Shown here in pieces: positions 42,133 through 51,126 of a stretch of DNA of 64,000 nt (position 1 is its first letter; each line of letters opens with the position of its first letter). The notes under the pieces were generated by a model. The model ran no database searches. It was not told the DNA's origin and saw nothing but the letters and a program-made list of their open reading frames with translations. The translations under genes were made by a program, and so were the position numbers. The stretch lies in sequence record OR062947.1; one strand, given 5' to 3'. The DNA is from Escherichia phage 348Ecol098PP.

Positions 42133-42712
42133 ATTAGTATTCGCATGTGCTCCGACTAAAACAGTTGATGATAAGCTGGAATATGCTTTTGGATTAGGTG
42201 ATGGACTTCCATGGAAGCATATCAAACAAGATATGAGTAACTTTGTTGCTCGCACTAAAAACACTGTAATGGTTATGGGTGCTAAGACTTTTGCATCATT
42301 ACCTCGTCTACTCCAAGACCGTACTCATGTGGTTGTCACTGATATGGCCAGAAAACTGCCTAGGACTAAAACCAACGAACTTGCACGGTTCTATATCACC
42401 CAATCTGAATTTATTACCTTGGTAACAGGTGGTGAAATTAACCTGTTTAGCCCTGCAACTGATGTACCGTTTAAACTTTCTACTGAACATGTTGATGTAT
42501 CTGTTATCGGCGGTCCTGCTTTATTAAAACAAGCACTGCCTTATGCCGATGAAATCGTGATGACTAAAATCATTAAGAAATGTCGTGTTAATTCCGATGT
42601 TCAACTTGATAAAGATTTCGTCCAAGATATTATGCTTCAACGTTCTATGGTAGAATCTCATTACTACAGAATCGATGAACTCACCGAAATTACTGAGAGC
42701 GTGTATAAATGA
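42125..42712 (+). CDS. frd: dihydrofolate reductase
   Basis: ATG at 42125 (track ORF extended upstream to 42041); MLKLVFA... DHFR-like; directly upstream of td as in T4. Confidence 0.8.
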   Translation: MLKLVFACAPTKTVDDKLEYAFGLGDGLPWKHIKQDMSNFVARTKNTVMVMGAKTFASLPRLLQDRTHVVVTDMARKLPRTKTNELARFYITQSEFITLVTGGEINLFSPATDVPFKLSTEHVDVSVIGGPALLKQALPYADEIVMTKIIKKCRVNSDVQLDKDFVQDIMLQRSMVESHYYRIDELTEITESVYK

Positions 42713-43257
42713 AACAATACCAATACCTGATTAATGATATCCTAGAAAATGGTTATGAAACAGACGACCGTACAGGTACCGGCACTATTGCCCTGTTCGG
42801 AACTAAATTGCGATGGGATCTGACTAAAGGATTCCCTGCGGTAACAACTAAGAAATTAGCATGGAAAGCTTGTATTGCCGAGCTATTATGGTTCATGTCT
42901 GGTTCTACCAATGTTAATGATTTGCGTATTCGTACTCATGGTAGTCTTATTCAAGGTAAAACTATTTGGGACGACAACTATGAAAATCAGGCAAAAGACC
43001 TTGGATATCATAGCGGCGAACTTGGTCCTATTTATGGTAAGCAATGGCGTGATTTCGGCGGTGTAGACCAATTGGTCAAAACTATCGACCGTATTAAAGC
43101 TCTTCCTAATGATCGTCGTCAAATAGTTTCTGCATGGAACCCGGCCGAAATTGACCAAATGGCTCTTCCTCCTTGTCATATGTTCTATCAATTTAATGTG
43201 CGTAATGGTCATCTTGATTTACAATGGTACCAACGAAGTGTTGATGTTTTCTTAGGT
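42709..43257 (+). CDS. td: thymidylate synthase, exon 1
   Basis: N-terminal TS sequence ...QYL.LI.DIL.NG....DRTGTGT...FG...R.DL...FP..TTKKL; exon ends ...VDVFLG at ttaggt, where the intron begins. Confidence 0.85.
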
Positions 43258-44273
43258 TAATTTAGGCCTAGGTATAAGGCGACTTATACTTGTAATCTAT
43301 CTAAACGGGGAACCTCTCTAGTAGACAATCCCGTGCTAAATTGTAGGACTACCCTTTAATAAATACTTCTATATAAAAAGAGGTGTTTATGAAAAGCGGA
43401 ATTTATCAGATTAAAAACACTTTAAACGGTAAAGTGTATGTTGGAAGTGCTAAAGATTTTGAGAAAAGATGGAAGAGACATTTTAAAGACCTTGAAAACG
43501 GTGTTCACTCTTCTATAAAATTTCAAAGGTCTTTTAATAAACATGGTAATGTTTTTGAATGCTCTGTACTGGAAGAAATTCCATATGAGAAAGATTTGAT
43601 TATTGAACGAGAAAATTTTTGGATTAAAGAGCTAAATTCTAAAATTAATGGATATAATATTGCTGATGCGTCTTTTGGCGATGTGCTTTCAAATCATCCA
43701 TTAAAAGAAGAAATTGCTAAGAAACGAGCTGAAACTGTTAAAGCTAAGATGCTTAAGCTTGGTCCTGATGGTCGGAAAGCTCTTTATGGTAAACACGGAA
43801 GTAAAAATGGCCGATGGAATCCAGAAAACCACAAGTTTTGTAAATGCGGTGTTCGCATACCATCTTCGGCCGATACTTGTGGAAAGTGCCGAAAACGTTC
43901 AGGTGAAAATAACCCGTTCTTTAATCACAAACATTCAGAAAAAACTAAAACTAAACTATCTGAAAAGATGAAAGGCAAAAAGCCAGCTAACATCAAAAAG
44001 ATTTCATGCGATGGGATTATTTTTGAATGTGCAGCCGATGCGGCTAGACATTTTGAAATTTCATCAGGATTAGTTACTTACCGTGTAAAATCTGATAAGT
44101 GGAATTGGTTCTACATAAATGCCTAACGACTATCCCTTTAGGGAGTAGGGTCAAGTGACTCGAAACGATAGACAACTTGCTTTAACAAGTTGGAGATATA
44201 GTCTGCTCTGCATGGTGACATGCAGCTGGATATAATTCCGGGATAAGATTAACGACCTTATCTGAACATAATG
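43258..44273 (+). mobile_element. group I self-splicing intron in td (1016 nt) carrying I-TevI
   Basis: starts taatttaggcctaggtataaggcgacttatacttgtaatctatctaaacggggaacc (matches remembered T4 td intron 5' end) and ends ...aacataatg before the exon 2 ctaccg; 5' splice site follows U. Confidence 0.85.
43389..44126 (+). CDS. I-TevI: intron-encoded GIY-YIG homing endonuclease I-TevI
   Basis: 245 aa from ATG 43389 (track start 43383 is GTG); MKSGIYQIKNTLNGKVYVGSAKDFEKRWKRHFKDLE...SSGLVTYRVKSDKWNWFYINA matches remembered I-TevI. Confidence 0.9.
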   Translation: MKSGIYQIKNTLNGKVYVGSAKDFEKRWKRHFKDLENGVHSSIKFQRSFNKHGNVFECSVLEEIPYEKDLIIERENFWIKELNSKINGYNIADASFGDVLSNHPLKEEIAKKRAETVKAKMLKLGPDGRKALYGKHGSKNGRWNPENHKFCKCGVRIPSSADTCGKCRKRSGENNPFFNHKHSEKTKTKLSEKMKGKKPANIKKISCDGIIFECAADAARHFEISSGLVTYRVKSDKWNWFYINA

Positions 44274-44585
44274 CTACCGTTCAACATTGCCTCGTACGCT
44301 GCCTTGACGCATATTGTAGCGAAGATGTGTAACCTTATCCCAGGTGATTTAGTGTTCTCAGGCGGCAACACGCATATCTACAGCAATCATGTAGAACAAT
44401 GCAAAGAAGTTCTTCGTCGTGAACCTAAAGAGTTATGTTCTCTTGAAATTAATTGGCCTAGTAATTTTGAGAATTGGCCTACAAAAATCCAAATGGACTG
44501 GGTTACTGGAACGATGACATATTCTGATTTCGTTCTTAAAAATTACGAATCACATCCAGCTATCAAAGCTAAAATGGCGGTATAA
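44274..44585 (+). CDS. td: thymidylate synthase, exon 2
   Basis: continues LPFNIASYA...; exon 1 plus exon 2 give 286 aa, the T4 TS length. Confidence 0.85.
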   Translation, partial: LPFNIASYAALTHIVAKMCNLIPGDLVFSGGNTHIYSNHVEQCKEVLRREPKELCSLEINWPSNFENWPTKIQMDWVTGTMTYSDFVLKNYESHPAIKAKMAV

Positions 44586-44928: not shown

Positions 44929-47184
44929 ATGCAAGTAACTAAGAGCAGTGGTGTATCCCAAAATTTTGATGCACAGAAAATTATTCAAGTCTTAACTTGG
45001 CAATGTGAAGGAACACAAATTGACCCATATGAATTGTACGAAGAAATTAAGACCCATCTTGTTGACGGGATGAGCACCAAAGATATCCAGAAGATTTGTA
45101 TTAAAGTTGCAGCTAACTCGATTTCTGTCGAAGAACCTGATTATCAGTATGTCGCCGCCAAAGGGCTAATGTTTGCACTTCGTAAAGATGTATATGGGCA
45201 GTTTGAACCGCCTGCTTTTATCGACCATATTTCTTATTGTGTTAATGAAGGCAAATATGACCCTGAGCTGTTGTCTCAATATTCAGCAGAAGAAATCATT
45301 TATCTCGATTCACAGATTAAACATGAGCGAGATTTTGACCTGACTTATGCTGGTGCTATGCAGCTTAAAGAAAAATACCTGGTTAAAGATAAAACAACTG
45401 GGAAGATTTATGAAACTCCCCAGTTTGCTATCATGGCCATTGGCATGGCCTTACACCAAGACGAAACTCATGACCGTTTGAAACATATTATTCGTTTTTA
45501 TGATGCCGTTTCTACTCATCAAGTTTCATTGCCTACCCCAATTATGGCAGGTGCTCGTACTCCAACTCGCCAGTTCTCTAGTTGTGTAGTTATTGAAGCA
45601 GGTGATTCGTTAAAATCTATTAACAAAACTTCAGCATCAATTATTGAATATATTTCTAAACGAGCTGGTATCGGTATCAACGTTGGTATGCTTCGTGCAG
45701 AAGGTTCTAAGATCGGTATGGGTGAAGTTCGACATACAGGTGTTATTCCATTCTGGAAACATTTCCAAACTGCAGTAAAATCTTGTTCTCAAGGTGGTAT
45801 TCGTGGTGGTGCTGCTACAGCGTATTATCCGATGTGGCACTTAGAAGTAGAGAACCTATTAGTTCTGAAAAATAACAAAGGCGTGGATGAAAACCGTATT
45901 CGTCATATGGACTACGGAATTCAGATTAATGACCTTATGATGGAACGCCTTGGTAAAAATGATTATATTACTTTATTTAGCCCTCACGAAATGTCAGGCG
46001 AACTATACTACTCGTTCTTTGAAGATCAAGATAAATTCCGTGAGCTTTATGAGAAAGCTGAAAAAGACCCGTCAATCAGAAAGAAAAGAATCAAAGCACT
46101 AGAACTCTTTGAATTGTTCATGACTGAACGTTCTGGCACTGCTCGAATTTATCCACAGTTTGTTGATAACACGAATAACTACACTCCATTTATTCGTGAA
46201 AAAGCTCCAATTCGTCAGAGTAACTTATGTTGTGAAATCGCTATTCCAACTAATGATGTGAATGGTCCTGATGCTGAAATTGGTTTATGCACATTATCTG
46301 CTTTTGTATTAGATAAATTTGATTGGCAAGACCAAGATAAAATTAATGAACTTGCTGAAGTACAAGTACGTGCACTTGATAACCTGTTAGACTATCAAGA
46401 TTATCCGGTTCCAGAAGCTTTAAAAGCTAAAAAGCGTCGAAACCTCGGTGTTGGTGTTACGAACTATGCCGCATGGTTAGCTTCCAACTTTGCTTCATAT
46501 GAAGACGCTAACGATTTGACTCATGAATTGTTTGAGAGATTGCAATATGGCCTTATCAAAGCATCAATCAAACTCGCCAAAGAAAAAGGATGTTGCGAGT
46601 ATTATTCAGACACTAAATGGTCTAGAGGCGAATTACCTATCGACTGGTACAATAAAAAGATTGACCAAATCGCAGCCCCGAACTACGTCTGTGACTGGGA
46701 AGAACTTCGAGCTGAACTCAAAGAACATGGAATTCGTAACTCAACGTTGTCTGCACTCATGCCTTGTGAGTCAAGCAGTCAAGTATCGAACTCTACAAAT
46801 GGGATTGAGCCACCACGCGGTCCAGTAAGTATTAAAGAATCTAAAGAAGGCAACTTCCGACAGGTTGTTCCTAATATCGAACATAACATGAGTCTTTACG
46901 ACTATGCGTGGAAACTTGCTAAGAAAGGTAATAAACCTTATTTGACCCAAGTTGCTATCATGTTGAAATGGGTGTGCCAATCTGCTTCTGCTAATACTTA
47001 CTATGACCCTGCAGTATTTGAGAAAGGTAAAGTGCCAATGTCAGTAATGCTTGACGATCTGCTTTACTTCTGGTACTTTGGCGGAAAAAACCTCTACTAT
47101 CATAACACTCGTGATGGGTCTGGTACAGACGACTATGAATTAGAAACACCTAAAGCAGAAGATTGTTCTGCTTGTAAGCTTTAA
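44929..47184 (+). CDS. nrdA: aerobic ribonucleotide reductase large subunit NrdA
   Basis: 751 aa; class Ia RNR catalytic motifs (e.g. NLCCEI active-site region, C-terminal redox cysteines ...CSACKL). Confidence 0.92.
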   Translation: MQVTKSSGVSQNFDAQKIIQVLTWQCEGTQIDPYELYEEIKTHLVDGMSTKDIQKICIKVAANSISVEEPDYQYVAAKGLMFALRKDVYGQFEPPAFIDHISYCVNEGKYDPELLSQYSAEEIIYLDSQIKHERDFDLTYAGAMQLKEKYLVKDKTTGKIYETPQFAIMAIGMALHQDETHDRLKHIIRFYDAVSTHQVSLPTPIMAGARTPTRQFSSCVVIEAGDSLKSINKTSASIIEYISKRAGIGINVGMLRAEGSKIGMGEVRHTGVIPFWKHFQTAVKSCSQGGIRGGAATAYYPMWHLEVENLLVLKNNKGVDENRIRHMDYGIQINDLMMERLGKNDYITLFSPHEMSGELYYSFFEDQDKFRELYEKAEKDPSIRKKRIKALELFELFMTERSGTARIYPQFVDNTNNYTPFIREKAPIRQSNLCCEIAIPTNDVNGPDAEIGLCTLSAFVLDKFDWQDQDKINELAEVQVRALDNLLDYQDYPVPEALKAKKRRNLGVGVTNYAAWLASNFASYEDANDLTHELFERLQYGLIKASIKLAKEKGCCEYYSDTKWSRGELPIDWYNKKIDQIAAPNYVCDWEELRAELKEHGIRNSTLSALMPCESSSQVSNSTNGIEPPRGPVSIKESKEGNFRQVVPNIEHNMSLYDYAWKLAKKGNKPYLTQVAIMLKWVCQSASANTYYDPAVFEKGKVPMSVMLDDLLYFWYFGGKNLYYHNTRDGSGTDDYELETPKAEDCSACKL

Positions 47185-47238
47185 GACTTTTTATTATAAT
47201 TTACTCATGGATGAGTTAATAACTAAGTGAGAAATATA

Positions 47239-47914
47239 ATGAGTACAGTTTTTAACACACAACAAGTCGATGTTTTGAATGAACCGATGTTCTTTGGTTC
47301 TGGTCTTGGCCTTGCACGTTACGATATTCAACGACATAAAGTTTTTGAAGAGCTTATCGAAAAGCAGCTCTCGTTCTTTTGGCGTCCCGAGGAAGTAAAC
47401 TTGATGTTGGATTCGGCCCAGTTTAATAAGCTTCCACAGTTCCAACAGGACATCTTTACCAACAACCTTAAGTATCAATCATTATTAGATTCTATCCAAG
47501 GTAGAGCACCATCTGCGGTACTTATGTCATTGCTTTCAGACCCTTCATTAGATACATGGGTTGCTACATGGACTTTCAGTGAAACTATTCACTCTCGTTC
47601 ATATACTCATATTATGCGAAATCTTTATACAGATCCATCGAAGGTGTTTGATGAGATTGTATTAGATGAAGCTATTATGAAGCGTGCCGAATCTATCGGA
47701 CGATATTATGATGATGTTCTGGTTAAAGCTCGTTATTGGGAAAACGCTAAAGCTGATATCGAATACCAAAAAGAAATTAATGCAGACGAAGACGTTATTG
47801 AAGATGCTATTGAGCATGAGACATATTGGAAGCGTGAGCTAATGAAATCTCTTTACCTTTGCCTCCATGTAATCAACGCATTGGAAGCTATTCGTTTTTA
47901 TGTATCTTTTGCGT
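47239..47914 (+). CDS. nrdB: ribonucleotide reductase small subunit NrdB, exon 1
   Basis: ATG at 47239 (MSTVFNT...; track start 47227 is GTG); exon ends ...RFYVSFA plus the first base of the Cys codon. Confidence 0.85.
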
Positions 47915-48024
47915 AAAATGCGCCTTTAAACGGTAACGTTTATCGAAAACTCCTTTAATTGCTGGAAAGTCCTTTATAGGAAAACTAGCAGCCAAGGTTT
48001 TGCTTGCACCTTTAATTAGTATAA

Positions 48025-48032
48025 TATAAATA
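48025..48032 (+). promoter_or_regulatory. late promoter TATAAATA inside the intron upstream of the endonuclease ORF
   Basis: tataaata about 28 nt upstream of the endonuclease start. Confidence 0.45.
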
Positions 48033-48059
48033 TGATTATACTTTTAAGAGGATGCACAA

Positions 48060-48869
48060 TTGAACTATAGAAAAATTTGGATAGATGCTAACGGACCTAT
48101 ACCTAAAGATTCTGATGGAAGAACATACGAAATCCATCATAAAGACGGTAACCGTGAAAATAATGATTTAGATAATTTGATGTGCCTTTCTATACAGGAA
48201 CATTATGATATACATTTAGCTCAAAAAGATTACCAGGCTTGTCATGCTATAAAGCTTAGAATGAAATATTCTCCTGAAGAAATTTCTGAATTAGCTTCTA
48301 AAGCCGCAAAATCTAGAGAAATCCAGATTTTTAATATCCCTGAAGTACGAGCTAAAAATATTGCCTCTATTAAATCTAAGATAGAAAATGGTACATTTCA
48401 TCTTTTAGGTGGTGAAATACAACGTAAATCTAATTTAAATAGAGTTGCATTAGGTATACATAATTTTCAACAAGCTGAGCATGTTGCAAAAGTCAAAGAA
48501 CGTAATATTGCAGCTATAAAAGAAGGTACTCATGTATTTTGCGGTGGTAAAATGCAGTCAGAAACTCAATCAAAACGGGTAAATGACGGTTCACATCATT
48601 TCTTATCAGAAGACCATAAGAAAAGAACATCAGCAAAAACATTAGAAATGGTTAAGAACGGGACCCATCCTGCACAAAAAGAAATCACATGTGATTTCTG
48701 CGGTCACATTGGTAAAGGTCCTGGATTTTATCTAAAACATAATGACAGATGTAAATTAAATCCAAATAGAATTCAATTGAATTGTCCATATTGTGATAAG
48801 AAAGATTTATCACCATCAACATATAAACGATGGCACGGCGACAATTGCAAAGCAAGGTTCAACGACTAG
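48060..48869 (+). CDS. I-TevIII: intron-encoded HNH homing endonuclease (I-TevIII-like, full length)
   Basis: 269 aa; HNH motif EIHHKDGNRENNDLDNLMCLSIQEHYDIH; C-terminal Zn-finger-like CDFCGH...CPYCDKK; apparent TTG start at 48060 after aagagga SD (no in-frame ATG upstream). Confidence 0.7.
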   Translation: MNYRKIWIDANGPIPKDSDGRTYEIHHKDGNRENNDLDNLMCLSIQEHYDIHLAQKDYQACHAIKLRMKYSPEEISELASKAAKSREIQIFNIPEVRAKNIASIKSKIENGTFHLLGGEIQRKSNLNRVALGIHNFQQAEHVAKVKERNIAAIKEGTHVFCGGKMQSETQSKRVNDGSHHFLSEDHKKRTSAKTLEMVKNGTHPAQKEITCDFCGHIGKGPGFYLKHNDRCKLNPNRIQLNCPYCDKKDLSPSTYKRWHGDNCKARFND

Positions 48870-49005
48870 TCTTCGGACGTAGGGTCAAGCGACTCGAAAT
48901 GGGGAGAATCCCTCTGGGATTGTGATATAGTCTGGTCTGCATAGTAATATGTAGCAGTTCATAAGAGAACGGGTTGAGAATTAGCGAGCTCAATCGAACA
49001 TAACG

Positions 49006-49508
49006 GTACCTTTAACTTCCATAAGAACATGGAAATCATGGAAGGTAATGCCAAGATTATGAAGTTCATTGCTCGTGATGAACAGCTCCACCTCAAGGGC
49101 ACTCAATATATTATTCGTGCTTTACAAGATGGCGAAGACGGTGATGAATGGGTCAAAATTGCTCAAGAGTGTGAACAAGAAGCAGTTGATATTTTCATGG
49201 AAGTTAACGCTCAAGAAAAAGAATGGGCTGAACACTTGTTTAAAGATGGTGCTCTTCCAGGTCTAAATGTTAAAATCCTAAGTGAATTTGTGGATTATCT
49301 TACCGTGTCTCGTATGCGTAGTTGTGGTCTGCCATGTCCTCTTAAAGACGTATCAACTCGTCATCCTATTCCATGGATTCGTGAGTATTTGAACTCTGAT
49401 TTGGTTCAAGCAGCTCCTCAGGAAGTTGAAATCAGTTCTTATCTTGTCGCACAAATTGATAATGATGTAGACCAAAATGTAATCAATTCATACAAAAAAT
49501 ATTTCTAA
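49006..49508 (+). CDS. nrdB: ribonucleotide reductase small subunit NrdB, exon 2
   Basis: (C)TFNFHKNMEIMEGNAKIMKFIARDEQLHLKGTQYII... in frame with exon 1 after intron removal. Confidence 0.85.
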
Positions 49509-49534: not shown

Positions 49535-49945
49535 ATGAAAGATATTGCCGCCGAATATTCCTTTATTAAATATACAGAATTGGAGCTATTAGAAGATGCA
49601 ACAATTAAAACAGTTGATGTCCCTAATAAGAAAAATGTCATATACGCTATTGCTATAGATGACGAACTTGTGTATATTGGTAAAACCAAGAATTTAAAGA
49701 AACGCATTAACTATTATCGAACAGCCATAAATCGAAAAGACCAGACTTCAGATTCAAGAAAATCACTTATGATTTTGGATGCCTTAATGCAAGGCAAAAA
49801 GGTTGAATTCTGGGCCCGCCAATGTTTTGACCTTTCAGTCACCAACGAACTTGGTTCAATGACCATCGCAACAATGGACCTTGAAGAACCGCTTTTTATC
49901 AAAAAGTTCAACCCGCCTTGGAATATCCAACATAAGAAAAAGTAG
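49535..49945 (+). CDS. denA: endonuclease II DenA
   Basis: 136 aa; MK.IA.EYSFIKYTELEL...NVIYAIAI.DELVYIGKTKNL.KRINYYRTAINRKD.TSDS...EEPLFIK.FNPPWNIQHKKK matches remembered T4 DenA. Confidence 0.8.
   Translation: MKDIAAEYSFIKYTELELLEDATIKTVDVPNKKNVIYAIAIDDELVYIGKTKNLKKRINYYRTAINRKDQTSDSRKSLMILDALMQGKKVEFWARQCFDLSVTNELGSMTIATMDLEEPLFIKKFNPPWNIQHKKK

Positions 49946-49992: not shown

Positions 49993-51126
<1,134 letters not shown>

Follow-up and report, generated by a model that had tools for sequence, protein, structure and literature searches.

nrdB of a Mosigvirus-like phage is very probably interrupted by a full-length RB3-type group I intron with an intact I-TevIII gene

The nrdB locus of this phage raises the question of whether the gene is interrupted by an intron that is removed from the transcript or is genuinely divided between two proteins. 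The reading frame that begins at the nrdB ATG at 47239, separated by a 54-nt spacer from nrdA (44929-47184), reaches a stop codon just past 47914, and the C-terminal part of NrdB is picked up again downstream, ahead of denA (49535-49945) and rnlA (50002-51126). In many automated GenBank annotations the same locus appears as two NrdB CDSs accompanied by a product named 'hypothetical protein' or 'homing endonuclease'. This would fit a truly split nrdB that yields two separate polypeptides, with no intron and with a free-standing HNH gene in the gap, comparable to the nrdA of phage Aeh1, which is split by mobE. We propose instead, with a probability of roughly 0.95, that 47915-49005 is a full-length group I self-splicing intron of the RB3 type, with an intact I-TevIII gene in the terminal loop of P6a. 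Four kinds of evidence were obtained in this analysis: sequence identity, anatomy, colinearity with intronless alleles and a match to a covariance model. For splicing, use of the promoter, cleavage and homing we draw by analogy on published work with the RB3 and T4 elements, which are 99% identical, and expect the same here. The feature is already known, since the RB3 intron was described in 1991 (Eddy & Gold), the biochemistry of I-TevIII followed in 2007, and dozens of sequenced phages have the element.

Joining 47914 to 49006 produced a continuous 1179-nt frame encoding a 392-aa NrdB. Exon 1 (47239..47914; 676 nt, with T as its last base), the intron (47915..49005; 1091 nt, ending in G) and exon 2 (49006..49508) all lie on the + strand, and the junction in the spliced protein reads ...RFYVSFACTFNFHK... 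(RFYVSFA-C-TFNFHK). The spliced product gave a single unbroken match to Pfam Ribonuc_red_sm (residues 33-335, E = 9e-36) that runs across the junction codon, 226. When a 500-nt query that took 250 nt from either side of the spliced junction was compared with intronless nrdB alleles, it gave one ungapped alignment; at least 80% of the query was covered at one place in 441 phage records, and the intronless nrdB of APCEc01 matched it with 97.2% identity over positions 1-500. The earlier note had placed the break in the NrdB frame exactly where the T4 nrdB intron sits, and the boundaries 47914/49006 proved exact, with T4 nrdB broken at the same nucleotide. An in-frame ATG at 49029, within exon 2, could serve a separate C-terminal polypeptide, as a split gene would require, but exon 1 stops in the middle of a codon after 676 nt and the conserved NrdB residues F-A-C-T-F straddle the junction, which argues against two independent products.

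A second line of evidence against a split gene comes from the parts of the interruption that do not encode protein, which make up a complete group I core. The earlier note had asked that the intron be folded from P1 to P9, and a hand mapping on coordinates of the window, the whole 64-kb stretch of DNA analysed, showed that every helix from P1 to P9.2 forms standard pairs. In the P1 hairpin (47911..47923, + strand), exon bases GCGU (47911-14) pair with the internal guide GCGC (47920-23), so that three G-C pairs follow on a U47914.G47920 wobble that marks the 5' splice site. The last base of the intron is the terminal G, 49005. The 5' half of the core (47915..48007, + strand), whose pairings were checked and which was aligned to Rfam through the related intron of phage PD112, contains P2 (47928-32/47937-41), the 5' strand of P3 (47950-53), P4 (47960-65/47985-90), P5 (47970-73/47978-81) and the 5' strands of P6 (47991-93) and P6a (48000-07). 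The 3' half (48847..49005, + strand) supplies the 3' strands of P6a and P6 (48847-58), P7 (48864-68/48928-32), P7.1 (48869-78), P7.2 (48882-95), the 3' strand of P3 (48903-06), P8 (48908-20), P9 (48937-54), P9.1 (48957-70) and P9.2 (48972-95). The two functions of the element share sequence at this end, where the last eight codons of the ORF (48846-48869) coincide with P6a', P6', J6/7 and the 5' strand of P7. Comparison with T4 revealed a compensatory G-C to A-U change in the P9 stem, and the 3' core also matched group I introns of Staphylococcus, T7-like Yersinia, Bacillus and Vibrio phages, among many unrelated ones. Guanosine-dependent self-splicing has been reported for the T4 and RB3 introns. 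We assign the intron to subgroup IA on the basis of the T4 record, which carries the note 'group 1A intron', and it has both the P3/P7 pseudoknot and the P7.1/P7.2 insertion typical of that subgroup.

The covariance-model searches at first sight favored a split gene, in that Rfam gave no match at the gathering threshold over the whole window. A permissive scan, by comparison, located RF00028 on the 3' core, at 48714-48954, with 33.9 bits (E = 1e-6; gathering score 50), and the experimentally proven T4 intron, with 35.7 bits on the same model, was likewise below threshold. We attribute the low score here to the ORF region of about 850 nt that splits the core, as is the case for the proven T4 intron. 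The ORF-less PD112 intron, a natural variant, reached 68.6 bits on RF00028 (E = 2e-17). Its alignment covered all of the model (1-253) and placed the extra sequence in the loop of P6, and by way of this variant, with its identical core segments, the interruption can itself be counted among group I cores. Since P1 with its U.G wobble, P7 and the terminal G are all present, and the ribozyme parts are identical to those of the RB3 intron and nearly so to those of the T4 intron, we consider it extremely improbable that nrdB is split without an intron.

The closeness of this intron to known elements extends over its entire length. From end to end it shared 99.3% identity with its counterpart in RB3 nrdB (X59078; NC_025419), both introns being 1091 nt, and all 8 nucleotide differences fell inside the ORF. 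Identity to the intron of phage AV111 was higher still (99.8%). In total, 128 phage records matched the intron, at least 84 of them with at least 80% of it covered at one place.

The ORF within the intron (48060..48869, + strand) starts with TTG, ends with TAG and encodes 269 aa, of which 266 are identical to RB3 I-TevIII (CAA41802.1); the three differences are Y23 for D, G117 for D and V142 for I. The earlier note had described a full-length protein with an intact HNH motif and a zinc-finger-like tail, and had held that an undetected frameshift would count against it; the frame was uninterrupted, and both domains were recovered. PHROG 12324, 'intron-like DNA endonuclease', matched residues 1-269 of 269 (E = 1.7e-192), and with the same length, the same intron position and a nearly identical sequence the product is the orthologue of RB3 I-TevIII. 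The HNH catalytic domain (48069..48203, + strand; residues 4-48) was identified as Pfam HNH_3 (E = 6e-13) and retains H26, H27, N39 and H48, each of which was found by mutation to be needed for catalysis in RB3 I-TevIII (Robbins et al. 2007, PMC1865063). Both C-terminal zinc fingers, of the form CX2CX12-13HX3C, are also intact: the first, CDFCGHIGKGPGFYLKHNDRC, spans residues 211-231 (48690..48752, + strand) with C211/C214, and the second, CPYCDKKDLSPSTYKRWHGDNC, residues 242-263 (48783..48848, + strand) with C242/C245. In the RB3 protein these four cysteines were needed for zinc and DNA binding (PMC1865063), and mobility, cleavage and dimerisation were demonstrated (Robbins et al. 2007, PMC1865063). 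A search of the sequences of solved structures found no significant relative (best E = 0.14). Pfam also reported FlgM at residues 74-117, at 26.5 bits against a cut-off of 25, probably a chance match to a helical, lysine-rich linker.

The three substitutions bear on whether the intron could splice yet carry a dead or weakened I-TevIII, as a stagnant passenger like that of T4. D23Y, D117G and I142V are changes from the sole biochemically tested protein and the first of them lies just three residues before the catalytic H26, but the ORF is unbroken and retains every residue known to be required for catalysis or for zinc binding. The same variant is carried by AV111, since the two nucleotides at which its intron differs miss the three variant codons. 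Furthermore, copies of the intron from different genera share about 99% identity where the exons share only 73-88%, implying recent successful spread. We therefore consider an impaired endonuclease unlikely and favor a functional one.

A further question is where translation of I-TevIII begins. The earlier note had suggested a TTG preceded by a good Shine-Dalgarno sequence, and this start, at 48060, is the accepted annotation, corresponding to the TTG at which the I-TevIII CDS begins in the GenBank record of Eddy & Gold (X59078). The Shine-Dalgarno sequence AAGAGGA (48046..48052, + strand) is strong, with 8 nt separating GAGG from the TTG. An in-frame TAA at 48045 lies four codons upstream, with no ATG, GTG or TTG between the two, and the next in-frame ATG, at 48180, is codon 41, past H26, H27 and N39. 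Initiation at that internal ATG, or lack of expression altogether, would leave no active HNH enzyme, and some considerations point in this direction: TTG is weak and rare as a start codon, a review (PMC2988022) speaks generically of an 'AUG initiation codon', and our literature search found no direct N-terminal evidence of UUG initiation in I-TevIII. The Robbins paper (PMC1865063) makes no mention of the start codon of I-TevIII. It does number the mutated residues (H26, H27, N39, H48), and those numbers fit no start other than the TTG, which thereby gains support; the Pfam HNH_3 match, moreover, already begins at residue 4, whereas a start at codon 41 would lose three of the four catalytic residues. 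In view of these points we hold an internal start or a silent ORF to be very improbable, and retain the TTG. A mini-ORF that overlaps it (ATG 48052-TGA 48063, MHN*) was set aside, its ATG lying only 0-1 nt past the Shine-Dalgarno core.

Analysis of the region upstream of the TTG revealed three candidate elements that could limit I-TevIII expression. The earlier note had pointed to a late-promoter-like TATAAATA, and this T4 late-promoter motif is present at 48025..48032 (+ strand) in a form identical to that of T4. The motif occurs 7 times in the 64-kb window against 7.45 expected, showing no enrichment, and since motif statistics are thus at chance level the promoter call is founded on context and on identity with T4. 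It sits in the apical part of a predicted RNA hairpin over the Shine-Dalgarno region (48005..48056, + strand), in which 48047-51 pair with 48009-13 and 48053-56 with 48005-08. The predicted stability of this hairpin is -14.9 kcal/mol (z = -4.73), with 0 of 200 shuffled sequences equally stable, and RNA starting at 48039 was predicted to be unstructured (z = +0.44). In this model the promoter motif is placed such that late transcripts would miss the 5' arm of the hairpin. Just upstream of TATAAATA, at 47998..48021 (+ strand), is an operator-like copy of the homing site, identical at 18 of 24 positions to the reconstituted site (TTTTGCGT joined to GTACCTTTAACTTCCA) and the sole match that strong on both strands of the window; T4 has this copy in identical form.

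This arrangement resembles what has been described for T4. Middle and late promoters of all three T4 intron endonuclease genes were located by primer extension (PMC2988022), and on early and middle transcripts a stable structure hides the ribosome binding site, with late transcripts beginning within that structure (PMC2988022, citing Gott et al. 1988). I-TevII and I-TevIII, in addition, have promoters that are overlapped by operator-like versions of their homing sites (PMC2988022).

We propose the following life cycle for the intron. On nrdA-nrdB transcripts of the early and middle periods, the ribozyme, to judge from its sequence identity with the known elements, would fold and excise itself; U47914.G47920 would set the 5' splice site and ligation of TTTTGCGT to GTACC would restore the 392-aa NrdB. 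Work on I-TevI by Gibb and Edgell (2010, in the reference list of PMC3984707) is reportedly what lies behind the idea that late-only translation of the ORF protects splicing. In the same early and middle transcripts the I-TevIII ribosome binding site would be buried in the hairpin, so that no ribosomes would travel along an ORF that overlaps P6a', P6 and P7; given the I-TevI work and this overlap of ORF and core, keeping ribosomes off the ORF until late should protect splicing. Late transcription from TATAAATA would start near 48038-40, inside the hairpin, freeing the Shine-Dalgarno sequence and presumably allowing weak initiation at UUG 48060. The endonuclease would then promote homing, in which repair off the intron-containing allele copies the intron together with a short flanking stretch of exon, as shown for the RB3 protein. 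Finally, I-TevIII may repress its own transcription through the 18/24 homing-site copy beside the promoter, as has been suggested.

Comparison of the intron with its surroundings revealed different affinities for the two. The surrounding 6.3 kb was closest to Mosigvirus phages (G2469 and AV111, 98.7%; JK45, 98.2%). Relative to RB3, however, the final 250 nt of exon 1 were 73% identical and the initial 250 nt of exon 2 were 88% identical, as opposed to 99.3% for the intron. Similarly, comparison with the Tequatrovirus phage F1 showed differences at 94 of 676 nt in exon 1 versus 12 of 1091 nt in the intron. APCEc01, which belongs to the same species as G2469, has an nrdB without the intron, and its allele is distinguished from those with the intron by synonymous changes at -5, -2, +2, +17 and +23 around the insertion site. 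In addition, 10-11 synonymous changes are clustered at 47859-47889, in part common to the intron-containing phage F1. The discordance between intron and exon identity is a hallmark of introns that have lately moved between phages by homing with short co-conversion tracts, and we read it in this way here. Recent spread of T-even introns by homing has been discussed for a long time, judging by titles cited in PMC2988022.

A more speculative reading, which we put forward tentatively and consider possible without favoring it, would combine these observations. An intron of the Tequatrovirus type would recently have homed into a Mosigvirus nrdB with a very short co-conversion tract, leaving the cluster at 47859-47889 as a gene-conversion scar or a target-site variant. 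This homing would have been driven by I-TevIII itself, because no mobE gene lies nearby. The UUG would then constitute a third, functionally required brake beside the hairpin and the operator, sparing the P6a-P7 core from being unfolded by ribosomes.

In practical terms, the correct annotation of the locus is a spliced nrdB CDS, join 47239..47914, 49006..49508, with I-TevIII starting at the TTG, in place of the two NrdB fragments plus a hypothetical protein given in many deposited genomes. The locus also provides one more example of a full-length, presumably mobile nrdB intron, an element nearly identical in Tequatrovirus and Mosigvirus even though the nrdB exons have diverged by 12-27%, which is consistent with recent spread by homing. 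Beyond correct annotation the finding is of limited value, the modest extra being its Mosigvirus-like host genome.

Among known systems, the closest counterpart is the RB3 intron, which occupies the same insertion nucleotide of the same gene and has an identical promoter motif, hairpin, Shine-Dalgarno sequence and TTG start. RB3 differs in that it is, like T4, a Tequatrovirus, in contrast to the Mosigvirus-like genome studied here, and in that mobE, absent from this genome, is present between nrdA and nrdB in both RB3 and T4. T4 nrdB (NC_000866, T4p231) is also interrupted at the identical nucleotide, by the same ribozyme, and the segment comprising promoter, hairpin, Shine-Dalgarno sequence and TTG is identical to that of this phage. 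As the earlier note had stated, however, the T4 endonuclease gene is truncated: the T4 intron corresponds to the present one minus two single bases and a 491-nt segment (48124..48614, + strand), leaving 598 nt, and the large deletion takes out the HNH motif and shifts the frame. What is left in T4 is a 97-aa remnant that starts at another ATG, labelled in the T4 record as 'defective DNA endonuclease ... deletion in proximal half; H-N-H family', and the T4 intron is mobile only in trans, via MobE. The intron of phage PD112 (MH837626.1) occupies the same insertion site and matches the present one exactly in both core segments, 5' (47915-48007) and 3' (48848-49005), but it is only 304 nt long, the whole ORF (window 48063-48847) being gone between 7-nt direct repeats, ACAATTG, together with 2 nt beside the promoter motif.

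A fourth comparison lies within this genome itself, where the earlier note had recognized a second intron/endonuclease pair. The td intron does carry a full-length I-TevI ORF (43389..44126, + strand; 245 aa, 89% identical to T4 I-TevI), and the integrity of their sequences suggests that both pairs may be active, as the earlier note had stated. The two introns are alike in several respects: both are group I and interrupt genes of nucleotide metabolism, both loop the endonuclease ORF out of the ribozyme core, both follow the same logic of late promoter and sequestering hairpin at the ribosome binding site, and both endonucleases cut away from the insertion site. The enzymes themselves differ, I-TevI being a GIY-YIG endonuclease that acts as a monomer and I-TevIII an HNH endonuclease that dimerises, and autorepression, which has been demonstrated for I-TevI alone, is so far a proposal for I-TevIII (PMC2988022).

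The nrdB intron of phage PD112 (MH837626.1) is a natural 304-nt version that lacks an open reading frame (positions 801-1104 of the PD112 nrdB locus) and is equivalent to window 47915-48062 joined to 48848-49005. The 785 nt missing from it (window 48063-48847) correspond to the entire I-TevIII ORF, and the deletion is bounded by 7-nt direct repeats, ACAATTG, whose window copies lie at 48056-48062 and 48841-48847. The ORF-less PD112 intron is a third state of the nrdB element, besides the full-length and T4-deleted forms.

In I-TevIII itself, a module of about 23 aa is repeated in tandem four to five times at residues about 108-205 (window 48381-48680), after the HNH domain and before the zinc fingers. 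The modules share the core G-(T/S)-H-x-F, with copies NGTFHLL, LGIHNF, EGTHVF, DGSHHF and NGTHPA; this region had no match in Pfam, and none of the solved structures is related to it by sequence. A Pfam match to FlgM, the anti-sigma-28 factor, covered residues 74-117 (window 48279-48410) with a score of 26.5 bits (E = 7.6e-6), barely exceeding the 25-bit cut-off for this family, and is probably a chance similarity to a helical linker. Endonucleases of the I-TevI type also act as late promoter repressors, and the FlgM match is curious solely in light of that role.

Comparison with the otherwise near-identical G2469 and AV111 identified 10-11 clustered substitutions, all synonymous, at window 47859-47889 in nrdB exon 1, 26-56 nt 5' of the intron; for the eleventh (47889), the comparison covered AV111 and F1 only. 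The substitutions at 47868-47889 are common to the intron-containing Tequatrovirus F1, and those at 47859-47865 are absent from both F1 and AV111. The patch resembles a short mosaic segment or gene-conversion tract adjoining the I-TevIII cleavage region.

The td gene (window 42709-44585) is also broken by its own group I intron, which, like the nrdB intron, was undetected by Rfam at the gathering threshold and which contains a full-length, 245-aa I-TevI (43389-44126). Whereas I-TevIII is 99% identical to its RB3 counterpart, I-TevI is far more diverged, with only 89% identity to that of T4.

In many deposited genomes the nrdB locus is annotated with two independent NrdB CDSs and a 'hypothetical protein' instead of spliced nrdB and I-TevIII (for example, L006, 2525-3202 and 4315-4794, and likewise L005, from AV111, and L008). 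This two-CDS annotation is a systematic error for intron-containing T-even genes.

Finally, the nrdA-nrdB spacer is just 54 nt (window 47185-47238) and contains neither mobE nor nrdB.1. In contrast, T4 and RB3 carry mobE, a free-standing HNH endonuclease gene, in this gap, and in the close relative AV111 nrdA is instead split by a homing endonuclease gene (L005, 780-1490).
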